Shown: positions 25,382 through 56,400, counted from the stretch's first letter. The stretch is 64,000 nt of DNA from an uncultured virus (IMG/VR IMGVR_UViG_3300001682_000595) (IMGVR_UViG_3300001682_000595), one strand, 5' to 3'. Numbers and translations: made by a program. The notes: a model not told the origin generated them from the letters alone.

Positions 25382-26950
25382 TTATTCTGCCACATCCACC
25401 GTCACGCCGGACTTAAATTCCAAGGTGAATTTGTCCTCGTAGACGGTGACTTTTTCAATTAGCCGCCGGATAAGCGACTCATCGTATTCGGTCAGGGCGG
25501 TGGGCTGCTCCCGAAGGAAGGTGCCCATGTCGGAGATACGTTTTTTCTGTTCATCCCGCCCGGCGCTTTCCAGCTGAAGCTTTTGCTTTTCCTCGCGCAG
25601 GTGGTAAATTTCGTTGCCTACTTTTTCGTAATCCGCATTGGAAGTAGCCAGTTTCAAAAGCTCCGCCTGCAACTCTTTCAATCGCTTGTCGATGTCGGCA
25701 AGGACCTGGTCGTTCCCGTGGCTCAGGACGGTTTCAATGTTGTTCTGAAGCGTCGTAAGAAAGGTGTCCCTGTCGCAAAGCGTTTGGTTAATGGCCTTGA
25801 CCAGCACCTGCTCGATTTGGCTTTCCGGCACGGTGCGGGCGTCGCAGAACAATCCGGTGTTTTCCAGGCGACTGATGCAGCGCCAGACAATGGACTTTTT
25901 GCCCCGGTTGTACCAGTGAATCCGGCGGTAAAACTCCCCGCAAACGCCACAATACACGATGTTCGCCAGACAGTGGCTGCTGCTGAACACCCGGTTCTTT
26001 CCGTTCGGGCTTTTATGGATTAAACGCCGACGCACCAGTTCCTCCTGCACCTGCATGAAAATTTCACGCGGGATGATGGCTTCATGGCTGTTTTCCACAT
26101 AGTATTGCGGGACAAGGCCGTTATTCTTGACCCGCTTTTTTGTGAGAAAATCAACTGTGTAGGTTTTCTGTAATAGGGCGTCTCCGATGTACTTTTCATT
26201 CCGCAGAATCTGGTTGATATTGCTGGTATGCCAGCGTTCTTTGCCCGCGCCGTTTAGGATGCCGTCGGCTTCCAGCCCGCGGGCAATTTTTAGCATGCTG
26301 GCCCCTTCAAGATATTCCCGGTAGATGCGCTTGACGACTTCGGCTTCCTCCGGCACGACCACCAGATGTTTGTTTTCGTCCTTGGTGTAGCCGAGGAAGC
26401 GGGCACAGTTGACCTGAATCTCGCCCTGCTGGTAGCGGTACTGCAGGCCCAGCTTCACGTTCTGGCTCAGGGACTGGCTCTCCTGCTGAGCGAGGGATGC
26501 CATAATCGTCAGCAGGACCTCACCCTTGGAATCCATGGTGTTAATGTTTTCCTTTTCAAAGTACACGGGAATATTCTTTTCCTTCAGCTGGCGGATGTAT
26601 TTCAGGCAGTCCAGGGTATTGCGCGCAAACCTGCTGATGGACTTGGTGATGACCATATCGATATTGCCCGCCATACACTCGTCAATCATGCGGTTGAATT
26701 CGTCGCGCTTTTTGGTGTTGGTGCCGGAAATGCCGTCGTCCGCAAAGATGCCGGCCAGCACCCAGTCCGGGTGACCGTTGATGTAGGCCGTGTAATGCTC
26801 AATCTGCGTTTCATAGCTTGTGGCCTGTTCGTCGCTGTCGGTGGAGACGCGGCAGTAGGCGGCGACACGCAGTTTTGGCTTTTCTTCGCTTTCGTCAGCA
26901 CGTATATGTTTCCTTGCCGGAATCACGGTAATATTTTTACTGACATCCAT
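25382..26950 (-). CDS. large serine recombinase (third of trio, element B)
   Basis: [26 protein letters not shown], zinc ribbon CGVCG. Confidence 0.95.
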
Positions 26951-27368
26951 CTTCCTCCACCTCCTTTTCTATCAGGCTGTAGGCGTATTCCGCCTGCTCA
27001 AAGGGGTCGTCAAATTCCTCCGTTCCTTCGCGCAGGCGAAACGCGGTGGGATAAATGGCCTTTTTCGTTTCTCTCGGCTCCCGGACGCGTCCGAGCTTCT
27101 TCGCCCGTTTGGCGCGTTCTGCTTCGGCGGCCGCGAATATCTCCGGGTCGATGATGGCCGGATAATACCCGTCGCCGAGGTAGCGGGCGTTCCGGAGCAT
27201 TATGCCGATTTCCGCGTGAAAGGCGGTGAGTCCCGCCTTCCGGGCGGCGTTGACCAGCGAATCGCCGGAAAGGTAGGATTGAAACAGCACCCTTACCCGC
27301 TCGGCGGCTTCCCCGTCAATCACGGCCAGCCCGTTTTCAATCCGGTAGCCGTAGGGTATATGGTTCAT
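26937..27368 (-). CDS. small recombinase-domain protein (middle of trio)
   Basis: HIPYGY, ML.NARYLG..YPAII. Confidence 0.85.
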
Positions 27369-28940
27369 TCAAATCACCAGCCTTTCCTTGAGCGTAATGC
27401 CGCACTTCAATTCAAACCCAATTTCCGTGCGGTCATACACATGAACCCACTCCACAAAACGCGCGAACAGTTCTCCGTCAAAGCCCTTCAGCATTGACGC
27501 TTTGGTGGTATACTGCAAAAGTTCGCTGACTTCCATCAGATTTCGGTTGTCGCAGCTGATGAGACGGGAGATGGATTCTTTTTGGCGCTGTATCCGCTCG
27601 GCTTCCCGCAGAAGTTCGTTGTTGCTCTTATTGTAAACGGCAGGCTCAAGGTAGCCTTTGGTCATCAGGCCGACCAGCACCTTTTGCTGCTGTGCGTTTT
27701 CCTCGAGTTTTTTCTCAAGCTGCCCGATACGCTCCAAACTGTCGTCTGCGTTTATCCCGCGCAGGCTGCGGAGGAGGGGCTTGAGTATGGTTTGGTTCCC
27801 GAATATGAGTTTGTTCATCATCGTGACGAAGGCGTATTCGAGGGAGGACTCCGGGATGTATTTCATGGGGCATTCTCCGATGTCCTGAATATGGGTGGCA
27901 CAGCACCATGCGATTTTGTGTCTTCCGCTTGCGTGGATGCGGCGTTTGAACGTGTCTCCGCAGTGGCCGCAGATGATTTTCCCCGAGAACGGGTAGCGGT
28001 TCTGATACTTGGATTGCTGTTTTTGAATGCCTTTTTCTTTGCCGCGCTGTTCTATGACGGCCTGCACGGCCGCAAAGTCCTCGCGGCTGATAATCGGCTC
28101 GTGGTAATCCCGAAGCAGATACTGTTCCTTTTCGCCGTCGTTGCGGTGGCGGTTAAAATTTGAATCGGTGTAGGTTTTCTGAAACAAAACGTCCCCGGTG
28201 TATTTTTCGTTTCCGGCTATTCCGCGAACGGTTGTCGCGGTCCAACGTCCGCCCCTTTTGGTTGGAATACGGCGCTGGTTCAACTCGTCGGCTATTTTCT
28301 GGGTTCCCTTGCCGGACAGGATTTCCGAGAAGATGAATCGGACGGTCTTCGCCTGCGATTTGTTTACGACCAGCATTCCGTCGACGGAATCATAGCCGTA
28401 GGGCGGACAGGTAATTTTATAAGTGCCGTTTTGAAATCGCCGCTGAATCGACCATTTGTTATTCTGCGCGATGGAAGCCGACTCGTTTTCGGCCAGTCCA
28501 CTTAGGATTGACAGCATGAGTTCGTTTACCATTGTCCCAGTGTCCAGGTTCTCCTTCTCAAAATAGATGTAAACACCGAGCTTTTGCATCCTCCGCACAA
28601 GTTCCAGACAATCGGTCGTGTTACGGGCAAAACGGCTGATGGATTTGGTGACGATGAAATCGATATGCCCGTTTTCACAATCGGCAATCATCCGGAGCAG
28701 TTCCGGACGCTTCTCCTTTTTCGTGCCCGTGATGCCCTCGTCATAATAAACCCCGGCAAACGCCCAGGTGGGATTTGCCTTAATGTACGATTCATAGTGC
28801 TCTATCTGCGTTTCAAGGCTTTCCTTTTGTTCGTCGCTGTCGGTGGAGACGCGGCAGTAAGCCGCGACCCGCAGCTTGGGCTGTTCGGTAAGAACGACTG
28901 TATCAACCGCGGTTGGGGCTATTTTCGTTACCTTCTTCAC
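27369..28940 (-). CDS. large serine recombinase (first of trio, element B)
   Basis: [26 protein letters not shown]. Confidence 0.95.
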   Translation of the reverse strand: MKKVTKIAPTAVDTVVLTEQPKLRVAAYCRVSTDSDEQKESLETQIEHYESYIKANPTWAFAGVYYDEGITGTKKEKRPELLRMIADCENGHIDFIVTKSISRFARNTTDCLELVRRMQKLGVYIYFEKENLDTGTMVNELMLSILSGLAENESASIAQNNKWSIQRRFQNGTYKITCPPYGYDSVDGMLVVNKSQAKTVRFIFSEILSGKGTQKIADELNQRRIPTKRGGRWTATTVRGIAGNEKYTGDVLFQKTYTDSNFNRHRNDGEKEQYLLRDYHEPIISREDFAAVQAVIEQRGKEKGIQKQQSKYQNRYPFSGKIICGHCGDTFKRRIHASGRHKIAWCCATHIQDIGECPMKYIPESSLEYAFVTMMNKLIFGNQTILKPLLRSLRGINADDSLERIGQLEKKLEENAQQQKVLVGLMTKGYLEPAVYNKSNNELLREAERIQRQKESISRLISCDNRNLMEVSELLQYTTKASMLKGFDGELFARFVEWVHVYDRTEIGFELKCGITLKERLVI

Positions 28941-29000
28941 ATTCTCACCTCCTTGGTCAGTGTGACATGTTACCTCTGAAAAACTGAGATAGCAACGCTT

Positions 29001-29234
29001 TTAGGGCATAATCTCCGCCAGCGCGGGAGAGAAAGATTCGCGGTTTAAGGCGGTGATCTTGTCGAATTCCGACAAGGAAATAAGCCCTTGGTTCAACATG
29101 GATTCGAGTATCTTTTGTGCCCTTGCGTAATCCGCTTCCCGCTGCAACTGTTCGTGCGTGAAGCGGGGCTTGGTTTGAGACGGTTCGTTTGACGGAATAC
29201 CGGTTGTACTCTGCGGTTTCTGTATGGCGGCCAT
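29001..29234 (-). CDS. SHOCT-like small protein
   Basis: ML..GLISLSEFDKI; GGAGG RBS; directly upstream of the recombinases. Confidence 0.75.
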   Translation of the reverse strand: MAAIQKPQSTTGIPSNEPSQTKPRFTHEQLQREADYARAQKILESMLNQGLISLSEFDKITALNRESFSPALAEIMP

Positions 29235-29358
29235 CAGTATCACCTCCTGCCAATAACCGAAAAAAACGTGGGGATTCGAACCCCCTGAAAACAGAAAAAG
29301 CCCCTCACCGTCCACAGGACAGCGAGGGGCCGTTTGGCAACCGGTATGAATTTATATG

Positions 29359-30279
29359 TTACTTCGCCGGAAGCTTCAACTTCTGCCCGGCATAGATGGT
29401 ATCCGAGGAAAGGCCGTTCAGCGCCTTGATTTCCTTGTACCGCGGGCCGCTTCCCAGCTTCTTTTTGGCGATGCTCCAGAGGGTGTCGCCATTGGCCACG
29501 GTGTAGGTTTCATAAGCAGGTTCGGTGTTTTCCGCTTTTTCTCCGGCCAGAATGGTGTTCACTCTCGCCTGCACGGCGGCATAGTCGTACCCGGCGGCGG
29601 TCAAACGGCTTTTGCGATCCTCACCGTTGCCCCAGTTTCCGCGGATAACCTCAAGCGCCAGTTTATCTATGACTTTGGATGCGGCGCCGGGAGTACTCGA
29701 ACCGCCAATTTCCAACAGACGCCTGACCTCCGCGCGGAAGGTGTCCATGCTCTTGCCGAACCTCGGAAACCAGTGCATCACGTCTGCGTGGTTGCTTGCT
29801 ATTCCGAGTTTATAGCCCTCCGAGTGGCAGATGATATCTTTCTCGGTCAGCCCGTACTGCCTGCAAAGATAGGCGCACAGTTCGGCGGCTTCCTTATAGA
29901 CGGCGCTGAAGTATGCCGCGTCGGCCGGCCCGTCCTCGCAGATTTCAAAGGATATGTGCGTGTCGTTGCCGGAGCCTTTGGAACCACTCCCGCAGTGCCA
30001 GCCGCGCATGTTCCACGGAAGCGTCTGGTATGTCGCGATGCTTCCGTCGGCGAGCCTGCCGATGAACGCGTGGACGCAGACCTGACGGCCGTCCGGCCTG
30101 TCCTGATTCCAGTGGTTGTTGTACTGGTTTTTGCCGAGAAGCCCGTCGTCCGGACCTACATATCGTTTCAGGTTCGGGTTGTTCGCGCCGGTGGAGTGCA
30201 CCATAATGCCCTTTGGCGTGATGGTGCGGCCCGCCTTGTAGCAGGCGTTGTTCGTCAGAATCAATTTGTGCAGGTTCAT
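29359..30279 (-). CDS. endolysin: Amidase_2 + CW_7 + LysM
   Basis: IMVHSTG, FEICED, H..NH.D; VIRGNWGNGEDRK..L; YTVANGDTLWSIA. Confidence 0.92.
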   Translation of the reverse strand: MNLHKLILTNNACYKAGRTITPKGIMVHSTGANNPNLKRYVGPDDGLLGKNQYNNHWNQDRPDGRQVCVHAFIGRLADGSIATYQTLPWNMRGWHCGSGSKGSGNDTHISFEICEDGPADAAYFSAVYKEAAELCAYLCRQYGLTEKDIICHSEGYKLGIASNHADVMHWFPRFGKSMDTFRAEVRRLLEIGGSSTPGAASKVIDKLALEVIRGNWGNGEDRKSRLTAAGYDYAAVQARVNTILAGEKAENTEPAYETYTVANGDTLWSIAKKKLGSGPRYKEIKALNGLSSDTIYAGQKLKLPAK

Positions 30280-30280
30280 G

Positions 30281-30694
30281 CTATTTATCCTCCTCGCCGT
30301 CGCGGCTGTGGAGCTGTTCCAGAACCGCCTTCAGTTTTTCGGGGATGGGAAGTCCCAGATGCCCTGCGTTCTCCAGAATCGACACGCCCTCGTTGCTCAG
30401 GTAGAAAAAGACGACCGCCGTGCGGACTGCGCCGCCGTCTCCGAGCACCTGGCTGTCGATGATGTTGCCCACGCCTACCAGCGCAAAGATGAGCACCTTG
30501 CGGAAGATGCCCTTGAAGCCAACCTCGCTGGAGAGTTTCCTATCGGCAACTGCGCACAGCACGCCGGTCAGGTAGTCCAGGACGACAAACGCCACGAGCG
30601 CGTAGAGAAAGCCGTCCGGCCCGCCCAGAAACCAGCCGAGGAAGCCGCCGGCGGCGGCAAGCGCGGCCTGCACCCAGTTCCAAACTGTTTTCAT
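30281..30694 (-). CDS. phage holin (toxin secretion/phage lysis family)
   Basis: DYLTG, NEGVSILEN..LG.PIP. Confidence 0.92.
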   Translation of the reverse strand: MKTVWNWVQAALAAAGGFLGWFLGGPDGFLYALVAFVVLDYLTGVLCAVADRKLSSEVGFKGIFRKVLIFALVGVGNIIDSQVLGDGGAVRTAVVFFYLSNEGVSILENAGHLGLPIPEKLKAVLEQLHSRDGEEDK

Positions 30695-30773
30695 AGTTTA
30701 AAGCCTCCGTTTCAATTAAATTTGACATATTAAAAGCGCCTTGCGGTAAAGCAAAGCGCCAAAATGGGAGAGA

Positions 30774-33245
30774 TTAAATTTGTTTGGGCAGGTACTCCCA
30801 CAGCCGCAGATCCTCCTGCCCCAGCGACCAGAGTGCAAAGCCCCTTAACCCCCAACGGTATGCCGCTTCGTTCGTCCAATAGACAATGGAATCCACGTCT
30901 TGGTAGTAAACGATGCCAAAGCCGTCCGCGTCGCCGAGAAAGAGCCGCGAGCACCAGACGTTGATGTCGCGCGGGGTAAACACCGCCGAGTAGTCCGCGT
31001 TGCACGGGATGGGAAGCAACGATGAATGCACGAAGTCGTAGTCCATCGAAATATCCTCGGTTCGAGTAGAAGACTCCTCCACGTCAGATTGAAGCTTGAA
31101 GACCTGAAACTCGTTGTCCCAAGAGACCCCCGTGCGGCTAATCCTTCCGTAGCTTGCAACCGTTCCGTCGGGCATCGTCACGTCGAAGGCCTCATACGGC
31201 TCGTATGTCCAGGCATCGCCCAAACGGAGCAGTTCGCATACGATTTGCCCGTCGGAGCGGATGCCGCAGTAGCCGTCCCCACCCGATACCGTAGCCGTGA
31301 AACGGAGCGTGTTGCTGTTACCGGAGTAGACCCTGACGTTATTTCCGCGCTTCCGCATTTCGACGAGGTACATATTCGGGTTCGTGCGGATGTCGGCGTT
31401 GGGCGTTTTGGAGTACGAGCCTTGATAGCTTCCAAGCAGTGTATTGCCTTGGTAGAGCTCCACGCGCTGGTTGTTGATGTTGATGCAGCAGAAGATATCT
31501 CCAATAAACACGCCCGCGCGCCCGCCGCCGTTTTGAGGGAAAGCCAGCCTTGCCCGAATGTGGACGTCCGAAAAGCCGTCGCAGTTCCACGCCAACTGTC
31601 CGCTGCCCTCAAGCTGGGAGTAGACCCTGTCCGTCGAGGATTCGTCGCTGCGCCAGACAGACCACGAGCCGGAAAGCGCCGTCCAGTAGCTTGGCTGCAG
31701 GGTGATATAGTCGCGGAAGTCCTCATACCATATCAGGGCTGAGTCGGGCTTACGGCGTAATACCTCCGTGGTCAGCCTGAAGCCCTGACTGGGCACCGCC
31801 ATATTGCCTTCGTTGTCTTTGAAACTGCGGGGCGAGAGGGCGAATGTCGCCGAACCCGCCGAAGGCTGCTCCGAGAACGCCGAGCATATGCGGAATCCGT
31901 AGAACTGCGCCCCCGGCGCGCCGCCCTCGATGGAAAGCGTGTGGTTCCCCGCCGGCAGGCTTATGCCCGAAGCAAGCGACAGCCACGTCGTTTTCCTCCA
32001 ATACGGCCACCACAGACGGTTCTCGCAAAAACTTACCGCCGAGCCGTCAAGGGCGATATTGATCGCGTTCTTATCCCAGAACGGGAAACAGATCTTCACT
32101 GCCACGTCATATGTGCCTGATGCGGAAATATTGAAAGCGTACTCCGCCGTACCGTCCTCCGCCGAGAGCGTGACCGTGCCGTTGCCCACTACAATGCCAT
32201 CCGTGTAGCTGTCCGGCTCTCCGTCTCGGTCAACGTAGATTGTGCCGAACGATGCCTTTTGAACTTTGCCGTAGCAGGTCAGGTAGTTGCGCCGGTTATA
32301 GGTATCGCCAACCATAGGCTCCTCACGGGATACCGCATCGCCGCCTTCGCAATAGTCGTAGACGTGCGGGAACATATACGGCACTTTATCATAATCGTCC
32401 CAGTAGGCGAGCCACGGAATGAACGGCTCCGGCGGCGCGTTGCCCGTGAAGTTGTAGCCGCCCTCAGCCCAGATTTTAGCGGCGTAGTAGGTCACCGACA
32501 CACCGCGATATGTCTTACCGAGGTCGGATGGGTTAGCATAAATCTGCCATTCCCAGCCGTAGGCCGGAAGCCCCATGAATACTTTATGAGGCGACATCGT
32601 TTGTACGGCGTAGTCGTAAACACCCTCCAGCCAGTCGCGGGGTGATACGGGACCCGGCGCGCTGCCCGCCCATGACATTCCGTAGGACATGATGGCGGCA
32701 GTGTCGCAGTAAGCGTCCAGGTCGGCGTAGACGCACCAGTTTTCGCCGCCTACCGAGCCTTGGACGCCCGTCATCCCGGGCAGGCAGATGTTGACCATCT
32801 TTGTGGGGTCGTAGTTCTTGACGGTCGAGTAGATGAGAGAGAACAGGTTGTTTGCCGCGACCCTGTTTTCATAACTGCCGCCGCGCTCCAGGTCAATGTC
32901 GACACCCGCGCACCATGGGTATTTCCGCATGATCCGCACCAGCTCGCTGAGGAATTTGTCCCTCGCGCCGCCCGTGTTCTCACGGAGTGCCGTAAAGATG
33001 CTCGCCGTGCCGTTGTTCATGCAGGTCAGCAGCCACTTGATGTGCGGCCACTTCGTGCGATAAGGCGAGAGCGAGGAGACGCTCACGCCCGTTTCCGAGA
33101 TTGTGCCGTCAACGGCGATGCTGAACGTGAAGATGCCCACGGTGTCGAGCCTGTCGCCGTATTGGTCGAGTGCTTGGTACATCCGGGCATTGCCCATAAA
33201 CGTCCAGACCATATTGCGCTTGCCTTTCAGGTAGTCTCGGCTCAT
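30774..33245 (-). CDS. tail-associated GH18 glycoside hydrolase with inserted beta-sandwich domains
   Basis: GVDIDLE (DxDxE), MSY, MGLPAYG, C-terminal GFALWSLGQED. Confidence 0.85.
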   Translation of the reverse strand: MSRDYLKGKRNMVWTFMGNARMYQALDQYGDRLDTVGIFTFSIAVDGTISETGVSVSSLSPYRTKWPHIKWLLTCMNNGTASIFTALRENTGGARDKFLSELVRIMRKYPWCAGVDIDLERGGSYENRVAANNLFSLIYSTVKNYDPTKMVNICLPGMTGVQGSVGGENWCVYADLDAYCDTAAIMSYGMSWAGSAPGPVSPRDWLEGVYDYAVQTMSPHKVFMGLPAYGWEWQIYANPSDLGKTYRGVSVTYYAAKIWAEGGYNFTGNAPPEPFIPWLAYWDDYDKVPYMFPHVYDYCEGGDAVSREEPMVGDTYNRRNYLTCYGKVQKASFGTIYVDRDGEPDSYTDGIVVGNGTVTLSAEDGTAEYAFNISASGTYDVAVKICFPFWDKNAINIALDGSAVSFCENRLWWPYWRKTTWLSLASGISLPAGNHTLSIEGGAPGAQFYGFRICSAFSEQPSAGSATFALSPRSFKDNEGNMAVPSQGFRLTTEVLRRKPDSALIWYEDFRDYITLQPSYWTALSGSWSVWRSDESSTDRVYSQLEGSGQLAWNCDGFSDVHIRARLAFPQNGGGRAGVFIGDIFCCININNQRVELYQGNTLLGSYQGSYSKTPNADIRTNPNMYLVEMRKRGNNVRVYSGNSNTLRFTATVSGGDGYCGIRSDGQIVCELLRLGDAWTYEPYEAFDVTMPDGTVASYGRISRTGVSWDNEFQVFKLQSDVEESSTRTEDISMDYDFVHSSLLPIPCNADYSAVFTPRDINVWCSRLFLGDADGFGIVYYQDVDSIVYWTNEAAYRWGLRGFALWSLGQEDLRLWEYLPKQI

Positions 33246-33811
33246 TGCGACACCTCGCTTTCGCTCATCTCCGTGTACTCCAGATACACCCGCGCCGACT
33301 TTTTGCTTTCCACTTTTATCCGATGCTTGCTGTCATAGGCGGCGGTGTACTGAAAGAAGCCGCGCTTGGGCGTTGCGGAGCCGTTTTTCAGGCATTCTCT
33401 TGTAGAGGCTTTCAGGGCGAACTCGTCGCCCGCCGAAGCCGCCGCTGTGAATTTGCATTTGTGCGAGCCCATACCTTGCGATACCTCGATACTGCCCGCC
33501 GCCATAGGCTGTTTCGGGTAGATGTAGAGGTCAAGCCCCGCCGATGTGCTACCCGTGTTGAACAGTACGACTGTTTCGCCGCCCCTGACCACGCCGTTTT
33601 GGTAGCGTGGGGTGTTGCCGGAATGAACGAGCATCGTTTTGGTGTTCTGGACGTAGCCCGTCAGCTTTTCGCCCTCCTGAAACTGAATGTCGGTGAAGTA
33701 AATCGTACCGGTGCAGTCGGTAATGGTCGGCGTGACCGTCACGGACACCACACGCTTGTCGGCCTTTAGCTTAATCGTCTCCGCAAAGCGAATGAAATTG
33801 TTCATAACCAT
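33242..33811 (-). CDS. tail-associated hypothetical protein
   Basis: Homologous to 49172-49756. Confidence 0.8.
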   Translation of the reverse strand: MVMNNFIRFAETIKLKADKRVVSVTVTPTITDCTGTIYFTDIQFQEGEKLTGYVQNTKTMLVHSGNTPRYQNGVVRGGETVVLFNTGSTSAGLDLYIYPKQPMAAGSIEVSQGMGSHKCKFTAAASAGDEFALKASTRECLKNGSATPKRGFFQYTAAYDSKHRIKVESKKSARVYLEYTEMSESEVSQ

Positions 33812-33814
33812 AGG

Positions 33815-34009: not shown

Positions 34010-34021
34010 AACGCTGCCCTC

Positions 34022-37411: not shown

Positions 37412-37417
37412 ACCTCC

Positions 37418-39874: not shown

Positions 39875-39875
39875 A

Positions 39876-45594: not shown

Positions 45595-45606
45595 AGGAGT
45601 GGTCAT

Positions 45607-46380: not shown

Positions 46381-46467
46381 CCGGCGGGCCGCCGGCGGCA
46401 ATTCGCGCCCCAATTTTTATACATAATCCGACTAATGCGCCGCACCTAAAGTGCGCGCTGAACGGAG

Positions 46468-48965: not shown

Positions 48966-48976
48966 GGGTGGTGGAT

Positions 48977-49171
48977 ATGGCATATTTCAATCAGATTGTA
49001 CACAGTTTTTCTCCGAAAAGTATCAGCAGAGTCAAGTCTATCACCATCAGACTGTGCGTCACTGACTGTAGCGGCACAGTGTATTTTACAGACATATTAT
49101 TGCAGGGCGGCTCGGTGGCCACCGGCTGGGTCGGTCATGTATGCGAGATACAGTGGACATTGGACGGGTAG
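48977..49171 (+). CDS. small tail-associated protein
   Basis: Homologous to 33815-34009. Confidence 0.75.
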   Translation: MAYFNQIVHSFSPKSISRVKSITIRLCVTDCSGTVYFTDILLQGGSVATGWVGHVCEIQWTLDG

Positions 49172-49756
49172 GTGTTGATGATGCAGTTTTCAAGGTTTGC
49201 GGAAACCATACAGATAAAAAGCGACAAGCATGTGGCGGGCGTGACTGTGACTTTGCTGCTTTCCGACTGCACCGGCACAATATATTTTACCGACCTGCAG
49301 CTTCAGGAAAACGACCGGCTGACGGGTTACACCGTCCACACCGGCAAAATGCTAACGAAGATGCAGGAAAACGGGCAGCCAGTTCCTCCTAGGCATTATA
49401 ACGGCGTGGTGCGGACAACGGAAACGGTTATTTTATTCAACCTGGGCAAAACATCCGCCGGCCTCGACTGTTATATCTATCCTGTGCAGGACATGGCGGC
49501 AGGCAGTATTGGGCTTTCCCAGGGCTTGGGCGCGCACAAAGTGAGGTTTCTTGACCCGGTAAACGCATGCGATGAGCTGGCGCTCAAGGTTTCCACCCGC
49601 CAATGCCTTAAAAACGGAAGTCCCACTCGTAAGGATGGGTTTTATCAATATTCTGCGGCATGGGACAGCAAACATACAGTGAAGCTGGAAGAGAGAAAAT
49701 CGGCGCGGGTGCTCTTTGAATTTCAGGAGATGCAGGAAGGCGGTGACCGGTTATGA
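49172..49756 (+). CDS. tail-associated hypothetical protein
   Basis: Homologous to 33242-33811. Confidence 0.8.
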   Translation: MLMMQFSRFAETIQIKSDKHVAGVTVTLLLSDCTGTIYFTDLQLQENDRLTGYTVHTGKMLTKMQENGQPVPPRHYNGVVRTTETVILFNLGKTSAGLDCYIYPVQDMAAGSIGLSQGLGAHKVRFLDPVNACDELALKVSTRQCLKNGSPTRKDGFYQYSAAWDSKHTVKLEERKSARVLFEFQEMQEGGDRL

Positions 49757-52221
49757 GGGATTTCTTAAGAGGTAAGCGGTGCATGGTGTGGAGTTTTATG
49801 GGTAATGCCCGAATGTATGAAGCGCTTTCCAATTATGGAGACCGGTTGGATACGGTGGGTATTTTCACATTTGAAGTGGATGCCACCGGTACTATTTCAG
49901 AAACCGGAACCAGTATCAGCAGTATGATCCCCTACATTCAAAAATGGCTGCATATCAAGTGGCTGCTGACCATTATGAACCATGGAACAGCCTCCGTTTT
50001 TACCGCGCTTCGCAATAACGAGAACGGGGCAAAGGATAAGTTTCTCACCGAGATTATCCGGATCATGAACAAGTACCCATGGTGCGCCGGGGTGGACATC
50101 GATCTGGAGCGCGGCGGCGGGTATGAAAACAAGGATGCGGCAAACGCGCTGTTTAGGGATATCTACCAGACCGTAAAAAACTTCAATCCGGCAAAGATCG
50201 TCAACATCTGCCTGCCCGGTATGACCGGAGTTCAGGGGTCGGTTGGAGGCGAAAACTGGTGCGTATACGCCGATCTTAATGCCTACTGCGATACCGCCGC
50301 CATCATGAGCTACGGCATGGCGTGGGCGGGCTCCGCTCCAGGGCCTGTATCTCCCCGGGACTGGCTGGAGGGCATATATGACTATGCGGTTACCGCGATG
50401 TCACCGGATAAAATCTTCATGGGGCTTCCCGCCTACGGCTGGAACTGGCGGATCCATGACACGCCGGAAAACCTCGGAGTCACCTATCGTGGAGTGTCCA
50501 ACACCTACTATGCGGCTAAATATTGGATGACGGGGGTTTACAATTTTACCGGCGACGCGCCGCCCCAGCCGTTCATTCCGATTGTCGCCTACTGGGACGA
50601 CTACAACAAAGTGTCGTGGGCGCTGCCCCATGTATATGACTATATGGAAGGATGGGATGCCGTATCCTGGGAATACCCGCTGCAAAAAAGTGTATACAAC
50701 AGAAGAAGGTATTTGACAGGCTACGGCAAGGAGCAGAAAACAGAGTTCGGAACTGTCTATATAGACAAAAACGGCGTTCCGGATGAGTATGAGGGGAATG
50801 TCATTGTTACCGGTGAGATGGCTTCGCTGGGAGATGACCAGGCTTCAGCAGAGTACCGGTTTGAGATAACGGAAGCGGGATATTATGATATCGCAGTCAG
50901 GCTTTGCTTTCCCTATTGGGACAAAAATGCGATTGTGGTTTCCCTGGACGGCAATGCGAAGACCTTCAGCGAAAACCGCCTGTGGTGGCCATACTGGAGA
51001 AGGATTTGCTGGATGACCCTTGAAAAGGGTGTATTTCTGACACAGGGTACGCATGCTGTCAGCATAAGCGGAGGCGTACCGGGAGTCCAGTTTTACGGAT
51101 TTCGGGTGTGCAGCAATTTTACAGAGTATCCTTTTGCGGGCGAGGCGGTATATATGCTGTCCCCGAGGCAATTTAAGGATGTAAACGGCGTGATGGCAGA
51201 GCCTGATCGAGGCTTTAAGCTGACCTTTGAAATGCTGCGGAGGAAACCCGACTCGGCCCTCATCTGGTATGAGGATTTCCGGGACAGGAACATACTGCCG
51301 GAAAGCTACTGGACGATCCTTTCCGGGGAGTGGAGCGTGTGGCAGGATCTGGAAAGCGCTGCCGACCGCCCTTATTCCCAGCTTGAAGGGCATGGCGAGC
51401 TTGCATGGAAATACGAAGGGTTTTCCGACGTCCATATCCGGGCAAGGCTGGCCTTTCCCCAAAATAGCAGCGGCCGGGCGGGAGTGTTCCTCGGCGATAT
51501 TTTCTGCTGCCTTAATTATGACACGCAGAGAGTTGAGCTTTATCAGGGCGCTTCCCTGCTTGGAAGCTATTCCACCAGTTTTTCCAAGACTCCGGACGGC
51601 GAGATCCGCACAAACCCCAATATGTACACCATCGAGATGCGAAAACGCGGCAATACGGTCAGGGTCTATTCCGGCGCAGGCTCAACCCTGCGTTTTACGG
51701 CGGCTGTCGGCAATGCAAGCGGTTATGCGGGAATCCGCTCGGACAGCCGAATAGTATGCGAATTGCTGCGGCTGGGCGACGCGTGGGTTTATGAGCCGTA
51801 TGAACGATTTGATGTAGAACTTCCGGATGGCACAACAGCAAGCTTTGGCAGGCTTGCCCGCACGGGCGTCACTTGGGACGAGGAGTTTCAGGTGTTTTCT
51901 GTAAACAGCGACGTGGAGGAACCGGCTACCCGCAGTGAGGATATATCGCTGGACTATGATTTCTTCCACTCGCAGCTTCTGGCGCTTTCCTGCGGCAATG
52001 ACTATGAAGTTAAAATTATCCCGAAGGAGGTAAACATCTGGATATCCCGCCTGTTCCTCGGCGACGCGGACGGTTTTTCCATCCTGTATTATCAGGACGT
52101 AGACAGCCTTGTTTACTGGGCAAACGAAGCGGCTTACCGCTGGAAGCTGCGCGGCATCGCCCTCTGGTCGCTCGGGCAGGAGGATATGCGGCTTTGGGAG
52201 GCGCTCCCGAAGCAGATATAG
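49753..52221 (+). CDS. tail-associated GH18 glycoside hydrolase
   Basis: GVDIDLE; colinear with 30774-33245. Confidence 0.85.
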   Translation: MRDFLRGKRCMVWSFMGNARMYEALSNYGDRLDTVGIFTFEVDATGTISETGTSISSMIPYIQKWLHIKWLLTIMNHGTASVFTALRNNENGAKDKFLTEIIRIMNKYPWCAGVDIDLERGGGYENKDAANALFRDIYQTVKNFNPAKIVNICLPGMTGVQGSVGGENWCVYADLNAYCDTAAIMSYGMAWAGSAPGPVSPRDWLEGIYDYAVTAMSPDKIFMGLPAYGWNWRIHDTPENLGVTYRGVSNTYYAAKYWMTGVYNFTGDAPPQPFIPIVAYWDDYNKVSWALPHVYDYMEGWDAVSWEYPLQKSVYNRRRYLTGYGKEQKTEFGTVYIDKNGVPDEYEGNVIVTGEMASLGDDQASAEYRFEITEAGYYDIAVRLCFPYWDKNAIVVSLDGNAKTFSENRLWWPYWRRICWMTLEKGVFLTQGTHAVSISGGVPGVQFYGFRVCSNFTEYPFAGEAVYMLSPRQFKDVNGVMAEPDRGFKLTFEMLRRKPDSALIWYEDFRDRNILPESYWTILSGEWSVWQDLESAADRPYSQLEGHGELAWKYEGFSDVHIRARLAFPQNSSGRAGVFLGDIFCCLNYDTQRVELYQGASLLGSYSTSFSKTPDGEIRTNPNMYTIEMRKRGNTVRVYSGAGSTLRFTAAVGNASGYAGIRSDSRIVCELLRLGDAWVYEPYERFDVELPDGTTASFGRLARTGVTWDEEFQVFSVNSDVEEPATRSEDISLDYDFFHSQLLALSCGNDYEVKIIPKEVNIWISRLFLGDADGFSILYYQDVDSLVYWANEAAYRWKLRGIALWSLGQEDMRLWEALPKQI

Positions 52222-52308
52222 GGCGGCGGTATTTATATATTCGGCGCTTTGCTTTCAGGCAGGGCGCTTTTTAATATGCAAAATTTGATTGAAACGGAGG
52301 TTTTATCA

Positions 52309-52725
52309 ATGAAAACGGTATGGAACTGGTTGCAGGCGGCCTTTGCCGCCGTCGGCGGTTTCCTCGGCTGGTTTCTCGGCGGGGCGGACGGGTTTCTCTA
52401 TGCTCTCATTGCCTTTGTGGCCATTGACTATCTGACCGGCGTGATGTGTGCGATTGCGGACAGGAAGCTGTCCAGCGAAGTCGGGGCCAAGGGCATCTTC
52501 AAGAAGGTGCTCATTTTTGTGCTGGTGGGCGTGGGGCACATCATTGACAGCCAGGTGCTTGGCGACGGCGGCGCGATCCGGACGGCGGTCATTTTCTTTT
52601 ATTTGAGCAATGAGGGTATTTCCATTCTGGAAAACGCTGCGCACATAGGGCTGCCAATTCCTGAGAAGTTAAAGAACGTACTGGAGCAGTTGCACAACCG
52701 CTCAGATGAGGAGGAAGAAAAATGA
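52309..52725 (+). CDS. phage holin
   Basis: Close homolog of 30281-30694. Confidence 0.92.
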   Translation: MKTVWNWLQAAFAAVGGFLGWFLGGADGFLYALIAFVAIDYLTGVMCAIADRKLSSEVGAKGIFKKVLIFVLVGVGHIIDSQVLGDGGAIRTAVIFFYLSNEGISILENAAHIGLPIPEKLKNVLEQLHNRSDEEEEK

Positions 52726-53447
52726 ACCTGCACAAACTCATTCTGACGAACAACGCCTGCTACAAGGCGGGCAAAACCATTATCCCGAAGGGCATCATGG
52801 TGCATTCCACAGGGGCAAACAATCCATGGCTCAAGCGCTATGTCAGCCCGGATGACGGCCTGCTGGGCAAAAATCCGTACAACAACCATTGGAACCAGGA
52901 CAGGCCGGACGGGCGGCAGGTCTGCGTCCACGCCTTTATCGGCAAGCTGGCGGATGGCAGCATCGCTGCCTACCAGACGCTTCCGTGGAATATGCGCGGC
53001 TGGCACTGCGGCGGCTCCGGCAATGACACGCACATAGGGTTTGAGATCTGCGAGGACGGTTTAACCGACGCCTCGTATTTTAATGCCGTCTACATGGAAG
53101 CTGCGGAGATTTGCGCCTACCTTTGCAGGGAGTATGGGCTGACCGAAAAGGACGTCATTTGCCATTCGGAGGGCTATAAGATGGGCATTGCTTCCAACCA
53201 CAGCGACGTCATGCATTGGTTCCCGAGGTTCGGGAAGTCCATGGATGCGTTCCGCGCCGAGGTAAGGAAGCTGCTTGACGCTGGGGGCAGCCCAAAGACG
53301 TACATTGTAAAGAAGGGCGACTCCCTTTGGGGCATTGCCCGAAAGGAGCTTGGCAGCGGGGCAAGATATCCGGAGATTATGTCCTTAAACGGGCTATCTT
53401 CGACGACGATTTATCCCGGACAGGTTTTGAAGATACCGCCGAAATAG
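52722..53447 (+). CDS. endolysin: Amidase_2 + LysM
   Basis: Amidase as in 29359-30279; YIVKKGDSLWGIA. Confidence 0.92.
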   Translation: MNLHKLILTNNACYKAGKTIIPKGIMVHSTGANNPWLKRYVSPDDGLLGKNPYNNHWNQDRPDGRQVCVHAFIGKLADGSIAAYQTLPWNMRGWHCGGSGNDTHIGFEICEDGLTDASYFNAVYMEAAEICAYLCREYGLTEKDVICHSEGYKMGIASNHSDVMHWFPRFGKSMDAFRAEVRKLLDAGGSPKTYIVKKGDSLWGIARKELGSGARYPEIMSLNGLSSTTIYPGQVLKIPPK

Positions 53448-53530
53448 GGTGCGGGCAATTGATACAATATCATGACAGCGGGGGCGGCGGTTTGGCCGCT
53501 CCCGCTTTAATAATCGGGGAGGTGTTTGTT

Positions 53531-53764
53531 GTGGCGCATGCGGGAACGGTTTCCAAGCATCCGGAGGGATTCGAGGATTATGTGAAAAAGGCGAAGCTTG
53601 CCATGCCGCCGGAGGAGCTGCAGGGGGAACTGGATTACTGGCGTTCCAGGAAAATCCTGCAGAAGATGCTTGACGGGGGCTTGATCACACCGGATGAATT
53701 CCACAAAATCGACGAATTAAACCGCAGATCTTTCTCGCCGAAGCTGGCGCGGCTGATGGCATAA
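53531..53764 (+). CDS. SHOCT-like small protein
   Basis: ML.GGLITPDEFHKI; GGAGG RBS. Confidence 0.7.
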   Translation: MAHAGTVSKHPEGFEDYVKKAKLAMPPEELQGELDYWRSRKILQKMLDGGLITPDEFHKIDELNRRSFSPKLARLMA

Positions 53765-53821
53765 TTGCCTTGCTATTATTAATGCTCAGAGGTATCATGT
53801 CCACCCCGGGAGGAGGTGAAA

Positions 53822-55390
53822 ATGATGCGAAAAGTTATGAAGATAGAAGCGGGCGGGGACAGGTTTGTTTCAGCCTTAAAGCTTCGGGTGGCGGCATATT
53901 GCCGCGTTTCCACCGACAATGACGACCAGCTTTTAAGCCTTGAGGCGCAAAAGCAGCACTATGAAAAAATCATCAGGGACAATCCGGAGTGGGAGTTTGC
54001 GGGGCTCTACTGCGACGAGGGCATCTCAGGCACCAAAAAGGAAAACCGCGACGGGCTTTTGAGGCTCCTGCGGGACTGCGAGAAGCATAAGATAGACTTC
54101 ATCATTACCAAGTCCATCAGCCGGTTTGCGAGAAATACCGCCGACTGCCTTGAAATCGTCCGCAGGCTTTCGGAACTTGGCGTTTTCATCTATTTTGAAA
54201 AGGAGAACATCAACACGCGCGCCATGGACAGCGAGCTCTTGCTTTCGGTGCTCAGCAGCCTTGCGGAAAACGAGTCGGTTTCCATCTCACAGAACAACAA
54301 ATGGGGCATTAAGAAGAGGTTCCAAAGCGGGACATACAGGCAGGCCATAGCCCCCTACGGATACGACAAGGTTGGCTGCACGCTGGTTCCAAACCCCGAG
54401 GAAGCGCCGGTCATAAAGCGCATTTTCCGGCAGGCGCTTTCCGGTGTGGGGGTGTATAAGATTGCGAAGGGGCTCAATGAGGACGGGATTGCCGGACGAA
54501 ACGGCAATCCATGGTCTGCCGGAACCGTCCGCGGCATATTGACAAACGAAAGGTACATAGGCGACCTGCTTTTGCAGAAAACCTACACCGACGACAGTTT
54601 CAGGCGGCGCAAAAACGGCGGCGAGCTTGACATGTACTATATGAAGGACCACCACGAGCCGCTTGTCAGCCGTGAGGATTTCGAGGCGGCAAAAAGGATG
54701 CTCGACCAGCACGCCAGGGAAAAAGGCATCGTGAGGGACGGGCGCAAATACAACGCGCGCTACCCGTTTTCGGGCCGGATCACCTGCGGGCAGTGCGGCG
54801 GGACATTCAAAAGGCGCATCCACCATGCTGGCAGGCAAAGCGAATATGTATCATGGTGCTGCGGCACGCATATTGAGGATATATCCGCGTGCTCCATGCT
54901 GTTTGTGCGGGAGGAGCACATCAGGAAAGCCTTTGTCAACATGACAAACCGGCTTTATTCCGGGCTGGACATGGTGCTGAAGCCTTTGACGGAGGCGCTG
55001 CGCAGGCAGGACGGCGACGGGTATTTTGCAAGGCTGGACGATATCGAAAGACTGATTAGTAAAAATACCGAGCGGGCGCAGGTGCTGGCGGGCCTTATGG
55101 CCAAAGGCTATCTTGAGCCCGCTCTTTTCAATTCGCAGGCAAACGCGCTCAAGCAGGAGGCGGAAAGGCTGAAAAAGGAAAAGGCGGCGCTTTTAGCCGC
55201 AATCGGCGAATTCTCGGCGGTTTCGGCGGCCGAGGAGGTCTATCGCTACCTTTCCCGGCGTGGATACATGGAGGAATTTGACGGCGATTTCTATGACCGC
55301 TTTGTGGAGGGCATGACGGTCTTCTCCCCTGTTGAAATCGGCTTTCGCTTAAAATGCGGCCTTGTCCTGCGGGAAAGGATGGAAAGGTAA
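53822..55390 (+). CDS. large serine recombinase (first of trio, element C)
   Basis: [29 protein letters not shown]. Confidence 0.95.
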   Translation: MMRKVMKIEAGGDRFVSALKLRVAAYCRVSTDNDDQLLSLEAQKQHYEKIIRDNPEWEFAGLYCDEGISGTKKENRDGLLRLLRDCEKHKIDFIITKSISRFARNTADCLEIVRRLSELGVFIYFEKENINTRAMDSELLLSVLSSLAENESVSISQNNKWGIKKRFQSGTYRQAIAPYGYDKVGCTLVPNPEEAPVIKRIFRQALSGVGVYKIAKGLNEDGIAGRNGNPWSAGTVRGILTNERYIGDLLLQKTYTDDSFRRRKNGGELDMYYMKDHHEPLVSREDFEAAKRMLDQHAREKGIVRDGRKYNARYPFSGRITCGQCGGTFKRRIHHAGRQSEYVSWCCGTHIEDISACSMLFVREEHIRKAFVNMTNRLYSGLDMVLKPLTEALRRQDGDGYFARLDDIERLISKNTERAQVLAGLMAKGYLEPALFNSQANALKQEAERLKKEKAALLAAIGEFSAVSAAEEVYRYLSRRGYMEEFDGDFYDRFVEGMTVFSPVEIGFRLKCGLVLRERMER

Positions 55391-56263
55391 TGAGGCATAT
55401 ACCTTACGGATACAGGATTAAAAACGGCCGGGCCGTTTTGGATGCAGACGAGGCGCGGCGGGTAAGGATGTTTTTTGAAGATTACCTGAATGGCGCGTCG
55501 CAGCAGGAAGCGGCAAGGCAAAACGGCATCCGCCGGGCGCAGGCGACCCTGGGCAAGATGCTGCGGGATAAAAAATATACGGGCGACGGCTTTTATCCTC
55601 CGGTCATATCTCAGGAAACCTTCGACCGGGCGCAGGAGGAGCGCAAGCGCCGTGAAAAAAGCCTTGGCCGGGACAAGAATTTCTTTGCCAAAGACAAAGA
55701 GGGCATATCCCCTTTCTGGGGTCTTGTGTTTTGCGGAAAGTGCGGCGGCGAATACCGCCGCTACGCCGACGGCGGAAGAAACCGATGGGCCTGCATCCGG
55801 CGAGCAAAGCGGCGCGATTTGCATGAAAATTGCCCGATGATCTCCGAGGCGGCGCTTGAAAAAGCGTTTATGGAGCTTTTGCGGTCTATTGATTTATCTG
55901 ACTTGCAGGACGGCCCGAAAAAGGCCGCGCCGGATATTGAAGCAAAATATGACGACCCGGTAAAGCAGGCGGAGTACGCGTATTCGCTTATCGAAATAGA
56001 CGACTTTGCTTATCTGACGAAAAAGCTTAAAAAAAAAGCTTAAAAAGCTGCTCATGGAAGCGCCGCCGGTCTTCGATGGGGAGTATATGAAAAGCGTCGT
56101 CCGGCGCATAACGGTATGCGGGGACAGGGCGGAGTTTGAGCTTTTAAACGGCAAAACCTACGGAAAGGAGCTGAGTTTGGGTGCTGCAGACGGCAAGGAA
56201 CGTGTCGGTCATACCGGCGCGAAGAAATATGCACCTGGCGGCGGAGGACAGCGCCGGGCATAA
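55390..56263 (+). pseudogene. middle recombinase-domain protein with zinc ribbon, frameshifted by a 13-nt duplication
   Basis: HIPYGY, CGKCG; AAAAAGCTTAAAAA duplicated at 56020-56046. Confidence 0.75.
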
Positions 56264-56400
56264 GCTGCGGGTGGCGGCCTACTGCCGCGTTTCCACAGAC
56301 GAAGAGGAACAGGCCTCCAGCTACGAGGTGCAAATCGAGCATTACACGTCTTTCATACAGGGCAATCCGGAGTGGGAGCTGGCGGGCATATTTGCCGATG
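56181..56400 (+). pseudogene. N-terminal fragment of the third serine recombinase, interrupted after LAGIFAD
   Basis: Matches 25382-26950 up to FAD, then similarity is lost. Confidence 0.85.

Follow-up and report, generated by a model that had tools for sequence, protein, structure and literature searches.

A recombinase-in-trio element apparently specific for the tape measure gene start, flanked by two outward-facing tail and lysis arms in an uncultured virus

Recombinase-in-trio (RIT) elements have been known since 2009 without their movement having been reproduced in the laboratory (PMC10214605, PMC3414803; available sections); neither target specificity nor movement has been formally tested (PMC10214605, available sections). 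The archetype, from Cupriavidus metallidurans CH34, has three same-strand tyrosine recombinase genes, with RitA the longest product, and terminal inverted repeats, and known RITs occur as near-identical copies in differing contexts (PMC3414803, PMC10214605; available sections). According to the accessible parts of these and one further source, RIT open reading frames (ORFs) overlap by 4–8 bp (PMC3414803), the repeats of the archetype measure 34 bp (PMC10214605) and RitA proteins carry two sequential core-binding domains (PMC8138268). Tn554, SE and GInt likewise combine tyrosine recombinase genes in a row with site-specific insertion that leaves no classical target duplication, but they encode extra non-recombinase proteins (TnpC, Tfp/Srap and GinD), and the accessible part of that review does not list long inverted repeats among their features (PMC10214605). 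Archetype RITs reside on proteobacterial chromosomes and plasmids, and in the accessible portions of the RIT literature, a coverage that leaves Ricker et al. 2013 (Plasmid) outside, no tape measure or phage target is reported.

We analysed a 64,000-nt stretch of an uncultured virus contig (IMGVR_UViG_3300001682_000595; hereafter the window), in which a 3.47-kb RIT element (39866–43337, + strand) sits between two diverging tail and lysis arms. The element comprises:

39866–39952 and 43261–43337: RIT inverted repeats
39992–41242, + strand: ritA, 416 aa from the ATG at 39992 (the ORF list starts at a GTG at 39983)
41246–42220, + strand: ritB, 324 aa
42217–43251, + strand: ritC, 344 aa

All three products have a Phage_integrase domain (Pfam), making these three adjacent same-strand tyrosine recombinase genes. 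The catalytic motif of tyrosine recombinases consists of an Arg in a first box, H-x-x-R and a downstream Tyr, and by eye we found candidate residues for each in all three translations (first-box Arg; HALR, HTLR and HSFR; Tyr downstream of LGH). ritB and ritC overlap by 4 nt (42217–42220), and ritA, ending at 41242, does not overlap ritB, which begins at 41246. The XerD-model alignment of RitA begins at residue 128, leaving a putative extra N-terminal domain in which residues 36–94 give a weak SAM-like match (E = 7.5e-4). The termini are 83-nt inverted repeats, 98% complementary; another copy, in contig L015, has 106-nt repeats that match at 100%, and the full-length repeat of this lineage is ~106 nt, compared with 34 bp in the archetype. 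The window copy carries a private 32-nt deletion at ~39950, inside the ritA-end repeat, which is missing from all 10 of the other aligned copies, and its ritC-end repeat tip is short by 13 nt. Against the NCBIfam gamma-mobile-trio GmtY model the Rit proteins scored just 20–29 bits, where the cut-off is 340 bits. By its gene content and termini, the element at 39866–43337 appears to be a RIT.

Copies that are 99–100% identical were found in 15 other public contigs with differing flanks. A search with the exact 42-nt repeat core returned 6 viral, 3 genome and 5 metagenome contigs, and a scan for the junction spacer described below added one to these 14; the six viral copies, all from IMG/VR, are 98.9–99.9% identical to the window RIT. 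Among 25 tabulated RIT ends, 10 adjoin a tape measure protein (TMP) gene and 11 the head/tail-tube side, the remaining 4 having too little flank to be assigned; each of the 21 ends whose flank can be read lies against codons 3–5 of a Heliusvirales-type TMP gene. Genes in the head-side flanks (portal, protease, major head, connectors, major tail and a tail protein) all point toward the RIT. Junction comparison revealed both orientations relative to TMP: three contigs have a normal head–RIT–TMP layout, in which the ritA end faces TMP in L011 and the ritC end does so in L015 and L016. L002 has spacer-bearing head-type junctions at both RIT ends, and the contigs L001, L002, L003 and L006 stop 13–42 nt past the far repeat. 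Near-identical copies in different contexts, as in known RITs, together with RIT-free sites, indicate that this lineage is mobile.

The junctions themselves follow a consistent pattern, which we describe relative to one short feature:

39858–39865, − strand: crossover core GACAACTT, TMP codons 3–5, at the canonical left (ritA-end) junction

At TMP-side junctions, an outward ribosome-binding site (RBS) and the codons ATG GGA TAT GAY come from the repeat tip and restore the TMP frame with one residue added. Eight of the ten TMP-side junctions are canonical and in frame, and frames of 729–988 aa begin at the tip ATG in five canonical-junction contigs and in G269, which contains a diverged RIT remnant (RitA 52% identical) with the same repeat tip and the same junction. 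The insertion thus seems to be self-repairing, with the repeat tip predicted to restore translation of the gene it interrupts. At head-side junctions come first a 9-codon stub, next a 16-nt spacer of the form ATC-N10-GAT and last the other repeat tip, so that two inverted core copies are retained. In all three fully readable normal cases, a single insertion shows one spacer-bearing head-type junction and one TMP-type junction. Empty sites were also recovered: in run X1 a RIT-free contig departs right after 39865 into the native left-TMP start (RBS...ATG TCA GAC), and this RIT-free form of the left arm has its own upstream gene; in run X5 a native start resembling that of the right TMP (ATGGCAGACGATTTTGGCCTGAA) precedes 43338; and native TMP genes in PV036426.1 and PV036457.1 start GTG/ATG GCG GAY AAT TTY GG. 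Strand exchange therefore falls within the octamer GAYRAYTT, which corresponds to TMP codons 3–5.

Taken together, these junctions argue that the RIT lineage is site-specific and naturally targets the opening codons of TMP genes in Heliusvirales-type temperate siphophages. This apparent specificity is what is new here: unlike the archetype, the present element has one defined target and a repeat tip that rebuilds the interrupted gene, and it is hosted by phages of anaerobic Bacillota. Within the lineage, sites before and after insertion (the empty site, both junction types and both orientations) occur naturally and can be compared nucleotide by nucleotide; with the shared 8-nt core and the spacer, which would mark a circle junction, they make the RIT mechanism directly testable.

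The left arm and its flank, reading away from the RIT, contain:

37418–39874, − strand: TMP_L, 818 aa, starting at the ATG from the RIT repeat tip (MGYDNFGL...; Pfam/PHROG)
36632–37411, − strand: Dit, 259 aa (Pfam/PHROG)
34022–36550, − strand: Tal, 842 aa (Pfam/PHROG)
33802–34083, − strand: 93-aa ORF (ORF list)
33242–33811, − strand: tail protein, 189 aa (Pfam/PHROG)
30774–33245, − strand: GH18 tail protein, 823 aa (Pfam/PHROG)
30281–30694, − strand: holin (Phage_holin_4_1; Pfam)
29359–30279, − strand: amidase (Amidase_2, CW_7 and LysM; Pfam)
28957–29253, − strand: SHOCT-like 98-aa ORF, named for its likeness to the right-arm copy
27369–28940, − strand: large serine recombinase (LSR), intact (Pfam Resolvase, Recombinase and Zn_ribbon)
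26937–27368, − strand: 143-aa LSR-derived protein, intact (phrog_7701)
25382–26950, − strand: LSR, intact (Pfam Resolvase, Recombinase and Zn_ribbon)
10105–25309, + strand: cargo/defence island, GC 0.39–0.45, between the left-arm recombinases and the early genes
1–9990, − strand: phage early/replication genes, read in the left-arm direction (Pfam)

The right arm and its flank contain:

43336–45594, + strand: TMP_R, 752 aa if the start is the TTG at 43336, first 14 nt missing, N mask at 45250–45310
45607–46380, + strand: Dit (Pfam)
46468–47169 and 47094–48965, + strand: Tal, split by a frameshift
between Tal and GH18, + strand: two small ORFs (ORF list)
49753–52221, + strand: GH18 protein, 822 aa (Pfam)
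3′ of GH18, + strand: holin, amidase and SHOCT (53327–53764) (Pfam)
53816–55390, + strand: LSR, intact (Resolvase, Recombinase and zinc ribbon)
55354–56043, + strand: 229-aa LSR-derived protein (Pfam/NCBIfam)
56181–56555, + strand: last LSR, a fragment with ~80 N-terminal residues left
57414–63786, − strand: opposite-strand cargo/defence genes after the right arm (Pfam)

The order TMP, Dit, Tal, GH18, holin, amidase, SHOCT and serine recombinases therefore occurs twice, diverging from the RIT, and the mirror-image modules that the first-pass annotation had described are borne out by the ORF, Pfam and PHROG calls. Their divergence at the DNA level, also described there, amounts to 69% identity across an alignment of 7905 nt, with further, shorter aligned pieces. 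The left 98-aa ORF has no Pfam match at E ≤ 0.001, and its SHOCT-like label comes only from 35 aa that are 49% identical to the right-arm SHOCT. The same annotation counted three recombinases per arm. The third gene on the right is a fragment, and the middle gene encodes a small LSR-derived protein. Three LSRs of the ~500-aa class are intact across both arms (25382–26950, 27369–28940 and 53816–55390), and with scores far below the cut-offs of the NCBIfam Ccr and XisF models they are not equivalogs of either.

We found no head or tail-tube genes adjoining either arm within the 64-kb window (ORF list, Pfam), as had been claimed, but the left arm is not an isolated half. Its genes are intact and continue past the recombinases into the 15-kb island (ABC-3C CTD11, DUF2326, N6/N4 methylase, ResIII, GmrSD, ADP-ribosylglycohydrolase-DUF6508, AAA_18, nucleotidyltransferase and a split methyltransferase) and then into phage early genes (sigma-like protein, DUF2800 nuclease, Enc34-type SSB, family A DNA polymerase, Rha and a VapE-like protein). 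The order of these early genes matches Heliusvirales record PV036426.1, with DNA matches to PV036457.1 and PV036420.1, and Heliusvirales records have cargo at the matching place on the opposite strand. Beyond the right arm lie genes for a DUF4357 protein, an AAA_13 ATPase (765 aa) and a ResIII helicase with an RE endonuclease domain (1007 aa). For TMP, GH18, the LSR region and DUF2800 alike, the nearest phage records belong to Heliusvirales (52–77% identity), and the left GH18 protein shares 61–69% identity with minor tail proteins from seven phage records, of which five are in the PV0364xx Heliusvirales series. Both arms thus appear to be Heliusvirales-type phage DNA; the marker genes of Ca. 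Heliusvirales, which include TerL and major capsid (PMC11283538, available sections), fall outside the window.

The right arm bears several lesions. Compared with a canonical junction its RIT junction is 27 nt short (13 nt of repeat tip and 14 nt of TMP), a loss seen at no other tabulated TMP-side junction and close to the ~25-nt offset between the two junctions that had been noted in the TMP 5′ region. In addition, a 34-nt deletion near 47050, identified against three homologues and the contigs of four runs, causes the Tal frameshift, and the last recombinase is truncated. These three losses suggest that the right arm is decaying.

A TMP–RIT–TMP arrangement is also present in a different genome, on the 866-kb contig G001, which we take to be a long-read assembly only from its name and size. 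This genome holds a single RIT copy, and both of its arms terminate in SHOCT, LSR, a 143-aa protein and LSR. The G001 and window RIT bodies are ~100% identical and the flanks just 58–77%, which suggests that the layout arose independently in the two genomes.

One explanation is that the arms already stood head to head, as an older inverted duplication or convergent prophage remnants, and that the RIT inserted later into the TMP/TMP joint. The arms are 69% identical and the RIT is ~100% identical to distant copies, so the RIT is much younger than the divergence of the arms, which favours this explanation. However, a single insertion yields one head-type and one TMP-type junction, whereas the window and G001 both show spacer-less TMP-type junctions at both RIT ends, and phage DNA that nearly matches the left arm circulates in other samples, including the RIT-free form. 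We regard this origin as very improbable.

Another is a working, reversible switch in which the RIT inverts or exchanges host-range arms for one head module. Phage Mu G-segment/invertase switches similarly involve a recombinase-bounded segment adjoining tail genes, and a Heliusvirales "DNA invertase" cluster has been discussed with Mu Gin cited (PMC11283538, available sections). Mu-type switches, however, invert a short segment and exchange tail-fibre ends within a complete phage; here whole 13–14-kb arms face outward with no head module alongside. A Mu Gin-like host-range switch was rejected on the outward arms, the lack of an adjoining head module and the coreless RIT end. More generally, both repeat tips bear an outward RBS and start codon able to drive a TMP on either side, and the mirror layout recurs in G001. 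Against this, head or tail-tube genes are absent beside both window arms, and the queries used detected neither a Heliusvirales-type polymerase or portal nor a phrog_88 major tail protein in G001. The arms carry their own lysis and integrase genes, unlike switches that exchange only receptor-binding ends, and the right arm is broken in three places. The reversible tail swapping raised in the first-pass annotation also conflicts with deletion of the ritC-end tip, including the crossover core, and with the 32-nt repeat deletion, and we give such a switch hardly any credence.

A third explanation is an assembly chimera, in which two co-occurring Heliusvirales phages or prophages, each with a RIT at its TMP start but in opposite orientations, were joined from one TMP to the other through a collapsed RIT. 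The RIT is multi-copy across samples and occurs in both orientations in similar habitats, as a mis-join requires, and short-read contigs often end at repeats, where the graph is ambiguous. In four runs, Logan contigs stop at the inverted repeats without any of them crossing the RIT; for X1, X2 and X4 the RIT interior forms a separate 3378-nt contig ending at the repeats. The best-matching runs (word share just 0.72–0.74) contain the RIT and a nearly identical left arm, X2 has almost nothing over 43338–45338 and other runs offer only 90–95% relatives of the right arm, with no near-identical right TMP. Left arm and RIT therefore exist without this right arm in X1 and X2, which is compatible with a chimera. 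On the other hand, there is one private deletion beside each arm, and a single decaying copy is simpler than two independently damaged copies merged by an assembler; G001 has no second copy to collapse; and the window contig continues through both repeats, for at least 39 kb in one direction and at least 20 kb in the other. A mis-join had been called equally possible; given the private deletions and the single-copy parallel in G001, we rate it lower and think it rather unlikely.

We consider it probable that two phage genomes did recombine at the RIT of the window, and that both ends of one RIT copy thereby came to join the TMP-downstream halves of two different genomes. The earlier suggestion of a RIT-linked fusion of related phages thus gains a natural insertion point and the G001 parallel, and either of two mechanisms could account for it. 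A reciprocal exchange of two phage genomes at the RIT would give TMP–RIT–TMP. It could proceed by homologous crossing-over between oppositely oriented RIT copies, since exchange between such copies joins like ends (tail to tail and head to head), and the partner product would be head–RIT–head. Alternatively, the RIT recombinases could catalyse exchange between a still-complete head-side junction and an uninterrupted TMP start in another phage, which would leave a head–spacer–head product lacking the RIT; no such RIT-less junction was present in the viral contigs scanned. The required parental layouts exist, as head–RIT–TMP in both orientations and, in L002, head-type junctions at both ends. 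The left genome, with intact genes, a canonical junction and continuity to the early genes, would be the younger partner and the right arm an older, decaying remnant; loss of the ritC-end tip would mean that this end no longer recombines and the arrangement is frozen.

In contrast to general repeat rearrangements, the repeat here is a site-specific element at a fixed point of the phage genome. Because the RIT is fixed at the TMP start, exchange always separates the head/tube genes from the TMP/host-range/lysis module, giving a widespread temperate phage order a fixed breakpoint between the two. Phage contigs with this RIT may be truly rearranged or chimeric and need long-read confirmation. More tentatively, and in our judgement doubtful, the RIT could be a phage-borne recombination device instead of a mere passenger, with the window and G001 as two independent capture fossils. 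The inverted core pair on the head side would let the recombinases act on the TMP start of any related incoming phage, splitting it between head/tube and TMP/host-range/lysis modules into a dead-end cointegrate, which would be a form of superinfection exclusion; if the TMP-side junction were used instead, whole tail arms would be swapped at a fixed point. In the window and in G001 it is the ritA end that faces the intact arm, and the arm beyond the ritC end is split or decayed.

Two mirrored tail-lysis-recombinase arms around the central recombinase-in-trio (RIT) element, as described in the first-pass annotation, were borne out by the ORF list, Pfam/PHROG assignments and alignment of the arms, with two caveats. 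The last recombinase of the right arm is only an 80-residue stub of a large serine recombinase (LSR); and the left arm is not a stump and continues into cargo and then early genes. The window is laid out as follows.

Layout of the window (RIT genes ritA, ritB and ritC, with the ritA end on the left)
1–9990, minus: phage early/replication genes, namely sigma-like, DUF2800 nuclease, Enc34-type SSB, family A polymerase, Rha and VapE-like (Pfam)
10105–25309, plus: low-GC cargo/defence island (GC 0.39–0.45 versus 0.53–0.59 in the arms)
25382–39874, minus: left arm (ORF list, Pfam/PHROG)
39866–43337, plus: three tyrosine recombinase genes within inverted repeats, the RIT (Pfam)
43336–56555, plus: right arm (ORF list, Pfam/PHROG)
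57414–63786, minus: further defence-type genes (Pfam)

Reading outward from the tape-measure (TMP) gene, the left arm encodes TMP (818 aa), Dit, Tal (842 aa), a 93-aa ORF, a tail protein, a GH18 protein (823 aa), holin, amidase and a SHOCT-like ORF; two LSRs with a 143-aa LSR-derived protein between them form its distal end. Gene order is conserved in the right arm, which shares 69% DNA identity with the left across 7905 nt. The window contains four N runs (7883–8004, 24170–24180, 45250–45310 and 63866–63986), the third of which falls within the right TMP. The 15-kb island, sited between phage recombinases and early genes, encodes ABC-3C CTD11, DUF2326 with AAA_23, an N6/N4 methylase with ResIII, GmrSD, an ADP-ribosylglycohydrolase-DUF6508 protein, an AAA_18/zeta-like protein and a nucleotidyltransferase (23781–24577, containing the 11-nt N run); a methyltransferase is split into overlapping ORFs (24625–24870 and 24767–25309). 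Beyond the right arm, genes for a DUF4357 protein, an AAA_13 ATPase of 765 aa and a ResIII helicase (1007 aa) that ends in a restriction-endonuclease domain look like a second defence cluster.

Judged by sequence similarity and gene order, both arms belong to Heliusvirales-type phages. The GH18 protein has 61–69% identity to minor tail proteins in seven phage records, five from the PV0364xx series, in which the records retrieved are classified under Ca. Heliusvirales, and the others from an Erysipelothrix and a Streptococcus phage. Among the matches listed, the left TMP shows 48–71% identity to tape-measure proteins, nine of them from the same series, and the recombinase block and DUF2800 gene share 76% DNA identity with PV036457.1. 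In PV036426.1 (58.7 kb) the order is opposite-strand cargo, exonuclease/polymerase/helicase, packaging, head, tail, TMP, Dit, Tal and GH18; the minus strand of the window from 39874 to 1 follows this circular order from TMP on, through tail, lysis, recombinases, cargo and early genes. Sections of PMC11283538 describe Heliusvirales as mostly temperate, with a 'DNA invertase' cluster common in the order.

RIT elements are already known as a kind, and the central element fits their description in sections of PMC3414803, PMC10214605 and PMC8138268. All three proteins carry a Phage_integrase domain (Pfam), score as Xer-like only below threshold in NCBIfam, and show R, H-x-x-R and Y boxes when the translations are inspected by eye; the inverted repeats span 83 nt in the window and 106 nt, perfectly matched, in the RIT-bearing contig L015. 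Scanning three public collections for the exact 42-nt repeat core yielded 6 viral, 3 genome and 5 metagenome contigs, and a scan for the head-side spacer gained one more. All six viral copies are 98.9–99.9% identical to the window element, and contigs L001 and L016, like L002 and L027, are probably one phage each, present in two data sets. The RIT DNA had no match among INPHARED phages. In 401 genomes sampled from the order of the 2.2-Mb MAG G001, a RitA-like gene at E ≤ 1e-60 occurred only in G001 and in G269, where a truncated RitA (52% identity) adjoins an 869-aa TMP. The G269 repeat tip (GGAGGATAAC...ATGGGATATGAC) and junction are those of the 99%-identical copies; the TMP target and a tip able to repair the TMP start therefore predate that swarm. 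Positions 69–200 of L008, from MAG JAPXRI010000034.1, hold a RIT repeat tip and then a TMP start with an additional base and stop codons (MGY, then two stops), resembling a degraded prophage version of the TMP-side junction.

The RIT inserts site-specifically at the start of the TMP gene. We tabulated 25 RIT ends, with 10 at a TMP gene, 11 at the opposite side and 4 too short for a call. Opposite-side flanks in contigs L001 and L006 encode portal, protease, major head, connectors, major tail and a tail protein, all oriented toward the RIT, which identifies this side as the head/tube region of the same type of phage.

Junction types (slashes separate segments)
Head-side junction: RBS-ATG NNN GAY AATTT / ATC-N10-GAT / AAATTATCATATCCCAT (repeat tip)
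TMP-side junction: (repeat) AAGGAGGATAACTTTATTT ATG GGA TAT GAY / RAY TTY GG...
Native TMP start in PV036426.1 and PV036457.1: GTG or ATG, then GCG GAY AAT TTY GG

Empty sites were present in two sequencing runs: a run X1 contig tracks the left TMP to 39865 and then reads native RBS and ATG TCA without a RIT, and run X5 has native ATGGCAGACGATTTTGGCCTGAA directly before 43338. Within-contig comparison of head-side and TMP-side junctions (L011 and L016) mapped strand exchange within the shared GAYRAYTT; in L011 the exchange falls between TMP codons 3 and 4. The repeat tip restores the TMP reading frame: ORFs of 729–988 aa begin at the tip ATG in the window left arm and in L004, L007, L012 and L015, and insertion costs the TMP only an N-terminal A/S-to-GY change. 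In the print record covered, which leaves Ricker et al. 2013 outside its scope, we found no fixed RIT target in a phage structural gene, no repeat tip restoring an interrupted reading frame, no natural empty and occupied RIT sites defining the crossover, and no recurrent tail-to-tail RIT products. Close to this target, in the RIT-free Heliusvirales record PV036457.1 (L033 1–1135; 49645–51435 in the record), an annotated reverse transcriptase gene ends 359 nt before the TMP start, and the spot may therefore draw other insertions too.

At the head-side junctions of L001–L016, the 10-nt spacer centre reads either CTACATCTAA or the reverse complement; both RIT ends show both orientations, with no constant tie to RIT orientation; L015 carries a one-base variant, TTACATCTAA. 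Of 10 stretches listed in the spacer scan of viral contigs, seven are head-side junctions adjoining a RIT, and neither a head-spacer-head nor a circle junction was found there. The other three were rejected as RIT-related: L029, L031 and L032 are related AT-rich IMG/VR contigs without a RIT, carrying the exact 20-nt string TTATCCTACATCTAAGATAA inside unrelated coding sequence, probably by coincidence.

Occupied sites come in three layouts.

Layouts around the RIT
Head-RIT-TMP: TMP beside the ritA end in L011 and beside the ritC end in L015 and L016; both flanks readable
TMP-RIT-TMP: the window and G001; both flanks readable
Spacer-type junction at each end: L002; second flank just 42 nt

In G001 the RIT is single-copy, in the 829–838-kb stretch of C4, a contig of 865,779 bp that, from its name and size, appears to be a long-read assembly, and has a canonical TMP-side junction at either end. 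SHOCT-LSR-143aa-LSR terminates both arms. The left arm differs in tail-fibre set and holin type, has its TMP split into two ORFs and is followed by host-like genes; the right arm resembles those of the window and leads into GmrSD and ADP-ribosylglycohydrolase-DUF6508 genes, as at 18.8–22.6 kb of the window, before the contig ends 15.7 kb beyond the last serine recombinase gene of this arm. Relative to the recombinases, this gene pair is reversed in order and strand between G001 and the window. We considered shared ancestry of the two TMP-RIT-TMP structures, since one BLAST alignment crosses both flanks, and rejected it: the RIT bodies are ~100% identical and the flanking TMP sequences only 58–77%, so the structures arose separately. 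Further against shared ancestry, the 5' end of the window's right TMP is nearer (81%) to the other TMP of G001. TMP-RIT-TMP forms repeatedly.

Other G001 observations concern its gene content. In the right arm (L022 5727–6515), Tal is separated from the following tail gene by an opposite-strand 262-aa RrnaAD gene (rRNA adenine dimethylase family, KsgA/Erm-type fold), cargo inserted into the tail module. Queries for phrog_88, a Heliusvirales-type polymerase and portal returned nothing relevant in G001, a result that in a 2.2-Mb MAG does not amount to absence. Matches to phrog_10 on G001 contig C9 were set aside, since they fall in two small islands of no relation that lack a nearby TMP. These islands (L024 and L025; 130 kb apart, opposite strands) each place an HK97-type capsid gene beside a distant serine recombinase; they have no relation to the RIT locus and may represent satellite-like elements.

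The window's own copy is damaged. Its ritA-end junction to the left TMP is canonical, and the ritC-end junction is short by 27 nt (the repeat tip is missing 13 nt, its part of the core among them, and the TMP 14 nt), with a TTG nine bases past the RBS as a possible in-frame start of the right TMP. The ritA-end repeat has an internal 32-nt deletion of sequence present in 10/10 other aligned copies. Compared with three homologues and with contigs from four runs, the right Tal has lost 34 nt, which shifts its frame. The left arm keeps every gene intact, and runs X1 and X2 carry this arm with 0–17 differences across the listed pieces.

The window structure probably reflects partner exchange between two phage genomes at the RIT. 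An assembly chimera of two RIT-bearing phages with opposite RIT orientation would also give this layout: Logan contigs end at the RIT repeats and show presence, variants and the two empty sites but no linkage across the RIT, and the best-matching runs carry the left arm and RIT without the window's right arm, although X2 has no cover on 43338–45338 and uncovered parts are not proof of absence. We nevertheless consider a chimera unlikely, because it needs two RIT copies damaged separately and the same layout exists where there is a single RIT copy. Partner exchange could have taken either of two routes. Crossing-over of two RIT copies inserted in opposite orientations would predict a head-RIT-head partner carrying a spacer at each end, of which L002 may be one; RIT-catalysed exchange between a head-side junction, which keeps two inverted cores, and the intact TMP start of a second phage would predict a RIT-free head-spacer-head partner, none of which appeared in viral contigs. 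Being intact and running via the cargo island into early genes, the left genome looks like the recent partner, and the damaged right arm like the older resident. In G001, the arm with an unbroken TMP and a window-like Dit-Tal-GH18 set lies at the ritA end and the split-TMP arm at the ritC end; together with the window, these two of two cases weakly suggest that the intact arm sits at the ritA end and the broken arm at the ritC end.
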